From positions 18,345 to 82,344 of IMG/VR virus record IMGVR_UViG_3300032297_000199: a DNA stretch of 64,000 nucleotides, one strand, 5' to 3'. Position numbers and translations under genes: made by a program. Numbering within the stretch: the stretch's first letter is position 1; each line of letters begins with the position of its first letter. The notes beneath the pieces are model-generated. The model did not search any database. It had not been told where the DNA came from and saw only the letters and a program-made list of their open reading frames with translations. Of this stretch, positions 3,228 through 5,593 are shown piece after piece. Source of the DNA: a virus.

Positions 3228-3251
3228 AATGATATTATACATTCTTTTTTG

Positions 3252-3282
3252 AAAAAGAAAAAGTGGGACTATGCCCACTTTT
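3252..3282 (-). terminator. Intrinsic terminator
   Basis: AAAAGTGGG-N6-CCCACTTTT hairpin followed by a T-rich tract on the minus strand; overlaps the stop at 3269. Confidence 0.7.
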
Positions 3283-3457
3283 CTCTGTACTTTGCTAATG
3301 CAAGCTGCCTTGCAAGAAACAATCTCCAACGAATATGTTCTGGTAATTCTTCATCGTCATTGACAATTTTGATATCCCGAACTAATTCTGGACGGCGATA
3401 AGCAACATGCAGATCTAATTCACCTGCAATATCGTCATCGCTGTCATCGAGATCACT
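3269..3457 (-). CDS. Small protein with DUF3619-like (anti-sigma-like) helix; start uncertain
   Basis: Protein-like segment SDLDDSDDD...DDEELPEHIRWRLFLARQLALAKYREKWA in the +1 frame relative to the upstream gene. No ATG nearby; candidates are ATG 3610, GTG 3523 or a CTG after AGGTGA. Confidence 0.5.
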   Translation of the reverse strand, partial: SDLDDSDDDIAGELDLHVAYRRPELVRDIKIVNDDEELPEHIRWRLFLARQLALAKYREKWA

Positions 3458-3698
3458 TCTTAGCTGGAGTTGGCTCAGCAGCCTTTTTGTCGTCCTTTTT
3501 AGCAGGAGCGGCTTTTGCGTCACTGCTTTTAGTGTCGGCTTTTGCAGCCGGTGCGCTGGGTGCAGGAGTACTAGCGGCAGGTGCTGGTGCTGTAACAGCA
3601 GGTTTGGCATCGGCCTTCTTTTCTTCTTTCTTAGCAGGTTCTGCGGCGAAAGCTGTAGCGGCAAACATAGTTGCGATTAAAGTTGCAATCAATTTCAT
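3453..3698 (-). CDS. Small secreted Ala/Lys/Pro-rich low-complexity protein
   Basis: Sec signal peptide MKLIATLIATMFAATAFA, AAGGA RBS, repeated PAKK/KKA motifs. Confidence 0.85.
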   Translation of the reverse strand: MKLIATLIATMFAATAFAAEPAKKEEKKADAKPAVTAPAPAASTPAPSAPAAKADTKSSDAKAAPAKKDDKKAAEPTPAKK

Positions 3699-3749
3699 GA
3701 TAAAGTTTCCTTTTGGTTAATGTAAGAAGAATTATTCCCCTACATATAT

Positions 3750-3778
3750 ATAACGCGATAGCCCGGAAACTAGTTGAC
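3750..3778 (-). promoter_or_regulatory. Putative ECF-sigma-type promoter
   Basis: GTCAAC (3778-3773)-N17-CGTTAT (3755-3750) matches the generic ECF AAC...CGT architecture. Confidence 0.5.
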
Positions 3779-5032: not shown

Positions 5033-5593
5033 ATGATAGGTTCTTTGAATTTAACAGGCCATATTTTAGCATCTCAGCCCAAGGGTCCTGACTCGTTATT
5101 TACGAGGGGTATTATAGTTGTAGCCAAGCACAATGACGAAGGTGCTTGGGGTCTCATGGTCAACAAACCGACCACAAGGATTTCTCTTAGCCAAGTAATG
5201 GCCTCTACTGGAATCGCATATTCTGGACAAGAATCAATATATGTCGGTGGCCCTGTTGACACGCATCGAGTGCATGTTATTCATTCTTTAGATTGGCAAA
5301 GTGCTGGGACAGTGCCAGTTACTTCTGAGATAGGAATTACCAGTGAAATGTCTGTAATGTTAGCAATTGCTGGCGGAGAAGGACCTAATTTGTTTAGGAC
5401 TTGTCTAGGAGTTACTGGTTGGGCAGCCGGTCAACTAGACGGAGAGTATAAAGGATTACCTCCGTGGAAGCCGGAACAACGATGGCTCGATGCTCCGGCT
5501 ACAATTGATGCTGTGTTTAATCTAAACAATGACGAACAATGGGAAAAGTGTATCGACATTGTAGCATCTAGTAAAGTATCAGCTTGGTTTTAA
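5033..5593 (+). CDS. yqgE: YqgE/AlgH (UPF0301) family protein
   Basis: H..EGAWGLMVNKP, YVGGPV and LG..GWAAGQL..E motifs. Confidence 0.88.
   Translation: MIGSLNLTGHILASQPKGPDSLFTRGIIVVAKHNDEGAWGLMVNKPTTRISLSQVMASTGIAYSGQESIYVGGPVDTHRVHVIHSLDWQSAGTVPVTSEIGITSEMSVMLAIAGGEGPNLFRTCLGVTGWAAGQLDGEYKGLPPWKPEQRWLDAPATIDAVFNLNNDEQWEKCIDIVASSKVSAWF

Follow-up and report, generated by a model that had tools for sequence, protein, structure and literature searches.

Organization of the cassette

The phage-like contig IMGVR_UViG_3300032297_000199 (82,344 bp, 40% G+C, CheckV completeness estimate 23%) contains a compact cassette in which a candidate extracytoplasmic function (ECF) sigma-type promoter precedes a small gene for a secreted protein, followed in another reading frame by a conserved tail with an anti-sigma-like helix; positions given here refer to a 64,000-nucleotide (nt) stretch of this contig, the window. 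All elements of the cassette lie on the minus strand, where the order is the stop of a nucleotidyltransferase gene, promoter, leader hairpin, Shine-Dalgarno (SD) element, open reading frame 1 (ORF1), tail, terminator and an NT5C-type nucleotidase gene (Table 1). The two flanking genes were assigned by Pfam, and the neighbourhood is one of replication genes. The original prediction for this locus had listed an ECF-type promoter, a hairpin, a secreted Ala/Lys/Pro ORF, an anti-sigma-like segment and a terminator, all of which are present; its wider idea, that a host ECF sigma drives a soluble, anchorless anti-sigma fragment, is largely supported in silico, except for the soluble, anchorless part.

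ORF1 encodes the protein MKLIATLIATMFAATAFA / AEP..., where the slash separates the signal peptide from the mature start, and continues as an Ala/Pro/Lys-rich region; it forms a G+C island (0.52 vs 0.33-0.43 in the surroundings). The segment DDEELPEHIRWRLFLARQLALAK is not a separate ORF; it lies in the +1 frame of ORF1 and overlaps it. This frame is open from position 3664 in the window and has no ATG, GTG or TTG past the ORF1 stop. Beyond that stop the tail passes through an acidic disordered stretch, an HVAYRRPEL motif, a second acidic stretch and a helix, and it terminates in ...DDEELPEHIRWRLFLARQLALAKYREKWA, the last residue of which ends at 3272. By analogy with the relatives described below, about eight tail codons would overlap the end of ORF1 in the window.

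Table 1 Features of the cassette in the 64,000-nt window
Feature	Position	Strand	Remarks
-35 element GTCAAC	3773..3778	-	exact match; ECF-type promoter candidate
-10 element CGTTAT	3750..3755	-	17-nt spacer from the -35 element
5' leader hairpin	3720..3745	-	starts 5 nt after the -10 hexamer; dG -6.6, z -1.41
Shine-Dalgarno element AAGGAAA	3706..3712	-	7 nt before the ATG; AAAGGA conserved in the alignment of relatives
ORF1	3453..3698	-	81 amino acids; ATG at 3698; ends PAKK, then TGA at 3455-3453
Sec-type signal peptide	3645..3698	-	18 amino acids, AFA/A cleavage; heuristic call
AAA AAG Lys-codon run	3483..3488	-	candidate +1 slip site in the window; ORF1 codons -11 and -10
AAG-TGA junction	3453..3458	-	last ORF1 codon and stop overlap the ORF2-frame codons AGT GAT
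Conserved +1-frame tail	3269..3479	-	stop at 3271-3269; 249 relatives at E<=1e-3
Amphipathic C-terminal helix LPEHIRWRLFLARQLALAKYREKW	3275..3340	-	anti-sigma-like element
Intrinsic terminator, hairpin and T-run	3249..3286	-	dG -13.5, z -3.18; tail (ORF2) stop in its loop

The exact string GTCAAC-N17-CGTTAT occurs once in the window, and its loose core, CAAC-N16-18-CGT, is found 15 times against 15.5 expected, which is the chance level. The leader hairpin is likewise not significant from the window sequence alone (Table 1). The earlier description of both elements was therefore correct, but its weight comes from the comparison with relatives, and the support for the promoter is its conservation among them rather than the statistics of the window.

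Conservation and genomic contexts

A profile of the tail was searched against 1.84 billion proteins with E<=1e-3 as the definition of a relative, and recovered 249 representatives, 40 of them at E<=1e-10, in which the match was always C-terminal. Pattern scans yielded 331 confirmed loci in IMG/VR and at least 344 loci in JGI metagenomes, and 160 loci (80 + 80, from overlapping sets) were fetched and analysed by one script. A signal-peptide ORF with the tail in its +1 frame was present at 141 of the 160 loci, corresponding to 105 unique loci, of which 104 have an ORF1 of at least 45 amino acids (aa). Among the remaining fetched loci, nine paired the tail with an ORF in another frame (mostly an unrelated upstream gene), seven had no signal-peptide ORF by the criteria applied and three had no helix motif; separate inspection identified three true single-frame genes (L176, L186 and L195). 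The two-frame layout is thus kept among relatives whose tails have diverged to 40-60% identity across the 105 unique loci.

The motif TGT[CA]AAC-N16/17-CGTTA[TA] lies 44-53 nt upstream of the ATG at 83 of the 104 unique loci, while 15 have a looser AAC..CGT, 4 have neither and 2 have too short an upstream sequence. Among the 83 promoter-bearing loci the spacer is 17 nt in 75 and 16 nt in 8, and the downstream element is CGTTAT in 77 and CGTTAA in 6; in two large phage records the pattern was found at the cassette only. The original prediction had asked whether promoter and peptide are conserved together in related phages, which is what these counts indicate. The leaders were folded one by one, because alignment misplaces their variable stems, which are built from 39 different hexamers in the relatives: 63 of 63 unique leaders formed a stem that is 6 bp or longer and begins 2-8 nt past the -10 hexamer (mean dG -9.5, z -4.3 vs mononucleotide shuffles), and RNAalifold on a MAFFT alignment of the leaders gave 0 pairs. 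A hairpin with a T-run follows the tail in 95 of 102 relatives.

The genes around the cassette vary. In 77 loci with enough flanking sequence, the neighbours fell into 34 upstream and 28 downstream clusters, the largest with 24 and 33 members, and the cassette, with its own promoter and terminator in varying contexts, behaves as a moron. Its commonest position is just upstream of one gene (L204 and 32 other loci), the product of which presumably resembles a T4 gp32-type single-strand DNA-binding protein. At five loci (L001, L002, L003, L005 and L006) a near-consensus sigma-70 promoter, TTGACc/a-N17-CATAAT, lies 30-90 nt past the tail stop.

No match was found among 50,697 GenBank phage records (blastn of the region and tblastn of the tail), PHROGs held no family for ORF1, the tail or two relatives, and a PDB sequence search with the family profile gave nothing below E 0.09. 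The family is absent from these searched cultured phages, PHROGs and solved structures. The ESM Atlas, queried with a bacterial homologue, gave no usable match, and a scan of genome contigs with the phage-type tail returned no cellular relative. Among public sequencing runs, none of RNA was listed as containing the sequence.

The secreted ORF1 product and its host counterparts

Signal peptides were called by pattern and hydropathy heuristics (basic n-region, hydrophobic core, AxA) and not by a trained predictor; by these, 100 of the 104 unique ORF1s carry a Sec signal peptide (signal peptidase I type), with AxA followed by A, Q, E or T, and the cleavage site falls after residue 18 in 76. When ORF1 is anchored on its stop, variability peaks at the third codon position as far as about codon -4, the periodicity of a coding sequence. 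A search of 301 Burkholderiales genomes with ORF1 gave five weak matches, two of which were informative (L248, 1495-1686; L249, reverse strand, 1495-1689 in the turned locus). These genes, of 63-64 aa with a signal peptide and an Ala/Lys-rich remainder, end in AAG AAG TAA and have a terminator downstream; upstream they have TGTCAAC-N16-CGTTAG and CGTCAAC-N16-CGTTTA, respectively. From this organization, they can be identified as host counterparts of ORF1.

Two reading frames and a candidate +1 shift

The end of ORF1 is highly constrained. Its last sense codon is AAG at 104 of 104 unique loci and the penultimate codon is AAG in 89 and AAA in 2, against an AAA:AAG ratio of 702:525 elsewhere in ORF1; the stop is TAA in 93, TGA in 11 and TAG in none, and the following base is T in 93. 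A start for the tail is not conserved: ATG occurs in the overlap at 18 of the 104 loci, in scattered positions, 38 have no ATG, GTG or TTG there, a start codon within 15 codons past the ORF1 stop exists at 10, and no arrangement of an SD element plus a start was seen. Over the helix region, the entropies of the three codon positions in the tail frame are 0.65/0.35/1.30, the signature of a tail under purifying selection in its own frame.

From codon -8 on, the synonymous sites of ORF1 are skewed toward K-K-(P/Q)-(S/N)-L-L-R-S in the +1 frame. AAA exceeds AAG by 61 to 16 at codon -8 and by 74 to 5 at codon -7 (background about 50:50), CCT is used at codon -4 in 61 of 78 cases (background 0.39) and GCT at codon -3 in 74 of 82 (background 0.38). 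This +1-frame motif matches the PKxK(L/I)(F/L)RSNP of single-frame relatives, so the last ~8 codons of ORF1 are apparently read in both frames, which would put the shift at or before the AAA-AAA-G run. In most relatives this run is AAA AAA G at codons -8/-7, and runs of 6-7 A occur in 58 and of 5 A in 33 of the 105 loci including the window. The join would be seamless, because tRNA-Lys could re-pair from AAA to AAG cognately and both frames read Lys-Lys.

In other relatives, signal peptide, linker and tail share one frame and are joined at differing places (P0018, P0035, P0062 and P0084/P0107), and further relatives with linkers that are not Ala/Pro/Lys-rich are single-frame throughout. Among the 150 matches listed, a hydropathy filter recognized an in-frame signal-peptide-like N-terminus in 36. 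These independent in-frame fusions suggest that the functional long product is the fusion and not the tail alone. The claim of a soluble fragment without an anchor does not agree with this, since the segment has no start codon of its own and is joined to a signal-peptide ORF by a conserved +1 overlap. A free cytoplasmic decoy is likewise not the most likely product, because the single-frame relatives and the bacterial homologues carry the signal peptide in frame.

With a +1 overlap, no downstream start and a layout kept among diverged relatives, a programmed +1 shift is the best reading of the two-frame arrangement from the sequences compared. Transcriptional slippage is unlikely, the A-runs being only 5-7 long and missing in 14 of the 105 loci. 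No tRNA gene able to decode a quadruplet was found on the 82-kb contig. Neither AAG_UAA nor AAG_UGA appears in the portions consulted of the recoding review by Atkins et al. 2016 (PMC5009743).

A DUF3619-linked ECF sigma factor as the candidate reader of the promoter

Cellular homologues of the tail were confined to betaproteobacteria of the Rhodocyclales/Azonexaceae type (35 loci in Azonexus, Dechloromonas, Ferribacterium and similar genera). At about 200 aa, these homologues carry a signal peptide and have the helix in duplicate. After exclusion of eight short or partial loci, TGACAAC-N16-GCGTTA was found 59-65 nt before the start of 10 of the 27 Azonexaceae helix-protein genes, and by eye also in L012. 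Two of the 35 loci were scanned for a sigma gene beside the homologue, and none was found, the neighbours being ordinary chromosomal genes. Two other exact matches to TGWCAAC-N15-18-GCGTTA were noted in Azonexaceae (L053, G001:C1:515957; L055, G004:C15:106412), one ahead of a small gene without a signal peptide and the other some 130 nt upstream of a cytochrome c gene. Either could belong to the regulon or have arisen by chance, as reversed-pattern controls gave 0-1 matches per genome.

The genomes with these homologues each have one operon of the order ECF sigma-DUF3619-DUF3106-RDD, the sigma of which belongs to NCBIfam NF006550 (PRK09047-type; 277 bits vs a cut-off of 173). DUF3619 was present in 33 of 41 genomes of the same GTDB order (Burkholderiales, including the unpublished G071) and in 1 of 41 of a class-level sample, namely the query genome itself. 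From the 33 DUF3619 loci, 28 sigma genes were retained (L232, L234, L239, L240 and L242 were dropped), and all 28 contain GTCAAC-N17-CGTTAY inside the coding part for sigma region 4, some 130 nt upstream of the start of DUF3619 (L048:1340-1370, with corresponding positions in the 27 other loci, from L046, L047, L049 and L216-L244). The embedded motif came to light in two genomes with ORF1-like genes, where a search for the promoter pattern led into the sigma gene. The region-4 peptide RQR(E/Q)AF..RY is encoded there as CGT CAA CGN ... CGT TAY in 28 of 28 genes. The codons CGT, CAA and CGT of the embedded motif are each invariant in all 28, whereas the other 32 of 35 invariant degenerate amino-acid columns use 2-6 codons each, with at most 25 of 28 genes sharing one; overall, these genes use CGT for 23% of Arg and CAA for 40% of Gln residues. 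Such codon constraint identifies the embedded motif as a promoter signature within coding sequence, with a consensus and spacing equal to those of the phage cassette, and it probably acts as a promoter within the gene, through which the sigma would feed back on its anti-sigma.

The cassette promoter fits the consensus derived here from the sigma genes, GTCAAC and CGTTA 16-17 nt apart. The ECF-type assignment of the promoter has therefore gained support, the bipartite motif being kept both in the unique phage relatives (83/104) and in the ECF sigma genes (28/28), and the earlier hint at a proteobacterial host agrees with the cellular homologues and the sigma operon, which are both betaproteobacterial. 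A Sigma70_r2 domain was found neither on the contig nor in any of five large cassette-bearing phage records, one of which is 99% complete. We infer that a betaproteobacterial host transcribes the cassette with its DUF3619-linked ECF sigma, and that both halves of the cassette have relatives in the small regulon of this sigma. The part of the literature consulted contained no paper on the function of DUF3619 or DUF3106, nor on the promoter.

The C-terminal helix, DUF3619 and modelled sigma docking

AlphaFold2 (AF2) modelled the tail with a mean predicted local distance difference test (pLDDT) score of 74.6 and a helix at residues 40-61 with a pLDDT of about 95, from an alignment of 104 rows (the window, 68 of 90 unique locus tails and 35 database relatives). 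The window peptide had no match in Pfam by hmmscan at E<=10. The DUF3619 hidden Markov model (PF12279), run on the contig, gave 12.4 bits; in relatives it gave about 13 bits (12.9-13) for three of seven close ones and 12.6-18.7 bits for five of ten wider ones. It is the only Pfam family that recurs for the helix, with matches at profile positions 12-42 of 130. In hhalign, the helix aligned with the N-terminal helix of DUF3619 at 76.9% probability (E 2.1e-5, 29 columns), with a DUF3619 profile of 31 proteins, two of the 33 extracted having been dropped; with a five-sequence bacterial profile the probability was 20% only. DUF3619 proteins combine two N-terminal helices with a membrane segment and a conserved C-terminal portion, an architecture not found in the tail. 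The likeness to DUF3619 that had been proposed for the segment is thus borne out for the helix and not for membership (12-13 bits vs 22.2): from a partial match below threshold it follows that the family is not DUF3619, yet it appears to share the second N-terminal helix.

A complex of the helix with a DUF3619-linked ECF sigma, a model that the original prediction had also asked for, was built from window tail residues 20-62 and a 28-row sigma alignment with Azonexus L048 as its first row. Three runs gave ipSAE (interaction prediction score from aligned errors) values of 0.82, 0.58 and 0.75, a median of 0.75 vs 0.01 for the best of three controls, and the model passes a mark attained by 58 out of 80 solved complexes and by 2 out of 110 mismatched pairs, counts that hold only roughly for custom alignments such as these. 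At least 66% of contacts recur between runs, partner pLDDT is at least 62, and the modelled interface places helix residues 37-62 on sigma residues 2-47, which correspond to region 2.

Proposed mechanism and alternatives

Our overall reading, to which we assign a probability of roughly 0.45 from sequence comparison and modelling, is a moron-like monocistronic cassette copied from a betaproteobacterial ECF regulon, in which a +1-fused anti-sigma-like tail would provide negative feedback. The phages would have taken it from the regulon of an NF006550/PRK09047-type sigma, and the host ECF sigma, active on infection or under whatever triggers it, would read GTCAAC-N17-CGTTAT. The short mRNA would carry a stabilising hairpin at its 5' end and an intrinsic terminator at its 3' end, and ribosomes would start at a single AUG and make the Sec signal peptide and the Ala/Lys/Pro-rich linker. 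The majority would stop at AAG-TGA and release a secreted 81-aa product, and a minority would enter the +1 frame, most likely because tRNA-Lys slips on an AAA-A/G run located slightly upstream of the stop, by a few codons. The product would thereby gain some 65-70 residues, which comprise a disordered acidic segment followed by the amphipathic helix. This helix, which resembles the second N-terminal helix of DUF3619, would sit on sigma region 2, and an anti-sigma-like module under the control of the sigma that it should bind would exert negative feedback on the host envelope-stress response. The tail would meet the sigma only before export or on export failure, because it is made behind a signal peptide.

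Several observations weigh against this reading. The tail should be exported, given the AxA sites of 100 of 104 ORF1s and the signal peptides of the single-frame and bacterial relatives, and the sigma is cytoplasmic. Solved ECF sigma/anti-sigma complexes exist, and the docking pass may reflect likeness to them rather than binding; moreover, the modelled sigma is an Azonexus stand-in for that of the phage's own host. AF2 gives one confident helix only, with the remainder of the tail without secondary structure, and all DUF3619 scores fall under the gathering cut-off of 22.2 bits, with 29 columns aligned. Upstream of the sigma genes, AAC-N15-18-CGT was found in 7 of 31 at inconsistent positions, so the sigma assignment rests on the embedded motif and the shared targets. 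As for the frame change, 14 of the 105 loci have no A-run of at least 5, so that there is no universal slippery site, and the window's own AAA AAG run sits at codons -11/-10, which weakens the slip model. RNAalifold found 0 conserved pairs 3' of the ORF1 stop (25 of the 104 loci plus the window), and no SD-like stimulator of the shift was recognised. Lys-UAA-U is an efficient termination context in Escherichia coli, and the slip model by itself leaves the invariance of AAG-TRA unexplained; at the AAG-stop itself, the frame could also change by a shift or by peptidyl-tRNA-Lys re-pairing backward, though this is less likely.

A more specific form of the feedback, which we consider rather unlikely, would be an anti-sigma gated by export through Sec, following the logic of FlgM. 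The helix would hold the sigma in the cytoplasm and export would remove it, so that sigma activity would be tied to secretion capacity; the two-helix proteins of Azonexaceae would act likewise, and phages would have attached a single helix to a gene of the host regulon by a new kind of +1 recoding, on a Lys-codon run or at the AAG-stop, which would set the ratio of inert secreted peptide to inhibitor.

The same anatomy could also serve a periplasmic effector, with the long product exported and acting in the envelope, for example as a stress-protective, membrane-active or superinfection-exclusion factor or as a partner of the periplasmic DUF3106 or DUF3619 C-terminal parts, and with a helix likeness that is convergent or inherited without sigma binding. 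The canonical signal peptides of ORF1 (100/104) fit this explanation well, as do the in-frame signal peptides of 36 of the 150 listed relatives and of all full-length Azonexaceae homologues shown, the host genes for a signal peptide with an Ala/Pro/Lys-rich remainder in the same regulon, which are plainly secreted peptides, and the sub-threshold DUF3619 match. However, no result points to a periplasmic partner, the complex model passes with a wide margin over its controls, and the only Pfam family of the helix is the partner of the very sigma whose consensus the cassette carries; we regard the effector as unlikely on balance, yet as a serious competitor. That the tail is translated alone, by re-initiation or from a non-canonical start near the ORF1 stop, and acts as a soluble cytoplasmic decoy seems distinctly unlikely, given that no start is conserved (ATG 18/104, none 38/104, within 15 codons of the stop 10/104), that no SD-plus-start arrangement was seen, and that the in-frame fusions in independent lineages would export, and so disable, a purely cytoplasmic factor. 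Such a decoy would nevertheless account for the uncoupling of helix and signal peptide in 141 of 160 loci, for the passing sigma-binding model and for an ORF1 that is by itself a complete host-type gene ending like its counterparts in AAG AAG TAA.

The two remaining explanations concern parts of the cassette. A motif that is used by a phage-encoded factor, by sigma-70 or as the binding site of a regulator instead of by a host ECF sigma would be compatible with the chance level of the loose core in the window and with a weak sigma-70-like site, CTTACA-18-TATCAT, at 3726-3697; but the conserved bases are those of GTCAAC and CGTTA, not of TTGACA and TATAAT, bacterial chromosomal genes carry the same motif, the five large phage records contain no sigma-70-family domain, and synonymous codons hold the motif inside an ECF sigma gene about 130 nt before DUF3619, all of which makes this alternative very improbable. 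A frame break without a start codon would resemble a pseudogene in a single sequence, and the tail might then be a decaying, mutationally frameshifted remnant that is no longer made. The break is, however, kept in 105 unique loci with tails only 40-60% identical, the codon-position entropy in the tail frame is that of a translated sequence (0.65/0.35/1.30) and the junction hexamer does not vary. Conservation of the frame break excludes a mutational remnant, whose probability is close to nil.

Comparison with known systems

DUF3619 (PF12279), which we take to be the anti-sigma of the Burkholderiales sigma-DUF3619-DUF3106-RDD operon, shares with the cassette the helix form L-x5-6-RL-xx-AR-xx-AL and the promoter consensus, which is embedded just upstream of the DUF3619 genes. 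In contrast to DUF3619, the cassette tail lacks the first helix, a transmembrane segment and the C-terminal YWQ...DDLP..AYLD.GF part; its helix is C-terminal behind a signal peptide, whereas that of DUF3619 lies in the cytoplasmic N-terminus; and the cassette is not beside a sigma gene, no sigma domain having been found on the contig. FlgM is an anti-sigma-28 that is exported from the cell by the flagellar type III apparatus. The predicted long product resembles it as a small, largely disordered protein with a C-terminal helix, here predicted to bind a sigma, and an export signal, and it would similarly couple sigma activity to export; FlgM, however, has no Sec signal peptide, and for the cassette product both binding and export are predictions.

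Programmed +1 frameshifts are known at prfB (CUU-UGA-C), antizyme (UCC-UGA-U) and Listeria phage PSA (CCC-UGA), and dnaX has the slippery run A-AAA-AAG. As in +1 frameshift genes, the frames of the cassette overlap, the downstream start is missing and the stop directly follows an invariant codon; unlike in the known cases, neither an SD-like nor a structural stimulator was found and the shift site is only a candidate. The Lys-codon run permits cognate re-pairing from AAA to AAG as in dnaX, but the shift would go the opposite way (+1) from that at the dnaX heptamer.

Phage morons are units with their own promoter and terminator between phage genes, and the cassette is similarly self-contained and found in many genomic contexts. 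T4 AsiA is a phage anti-sigma that targets region 4 of sigma-70 as part of the phage's own programme. The cassette would also be a phage gene aimed at a host sigma (predicted), but unlike AsiA it would target an ECF sigma and be driven by the same sigma. In the Rz/Rz1 spanins, one gene lies inside the other in its +1 frame, the outer component requiring a lipoprotein Cys and the inner a membrane anchor. The +1-frame overlap of two envelope-directed phage frames is shared with the cassette, but ORF1 has no lipobox Cys, the tail has neither a transmembrane segment nor a start, and the neighbourhood is one of replication genes. A spanin identity was rejected, as ORF1 has no Cys and the tail no membrane segment.

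The known kinds on which the cassette would be a variation are phage anti-sigmas, morons, programmed +1 frameshifts and exported anti-sigmas; what is new is their combination and, if confirmed, the recoding site and the promoter embedded in the sigma gene. To our knowledge, phage anti-sigmas target the housekeeping sigma-70, and we know of no earlier ECF-directed phage module. If our reading holds, the cassette would be the first known phage module to target an ECF sigma, and would moreover be wired into that sigma's own regulon, and the uncharacterised ECF system would gain a testable consensus (GTCAAC-N17-CGTTA), its first regulon members and a candidate feedback loop. It would further provide a widespread and conserved case of +1 recoding with an unusual site (331 viral and at least 344 metagenome loci), and would place uncultured, partly jumbo, freshwater phages with betaproteobacterial hosts. 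It also raises the question of why a sigma-binding-like helix lies behind a signal peptide.

Other features of the window

The NT5C gene that follows the cassette is preceded by its own extended -10 promoter with the element TGTATAAT. On the plus strand, two adjacent overlapping ORFs of 256 and 264 aa (1180-1950 and 1934-2728) resemble each other at the N-terminus (FSHSGT.GD...GGGDFYL.LNNMD) and in their C-terminal parts, suggestive of a tandem duplication. An ORF of 186 aa at 5033-5593 (plus) lies on the strand opposite to its neighbours and is raised in G+C (0.44-0.49); its product presumably resembles the YqgE/AlgH (UPF0301) family, and the gene, too, may stem from a host. A row of very large ORFs fills the second half of the window on the minus strand (36667-63786; 2283, 2003, 956, 1094, 587 and 2063 aa); they presumably encode structural or fibre proteins of a large phage.

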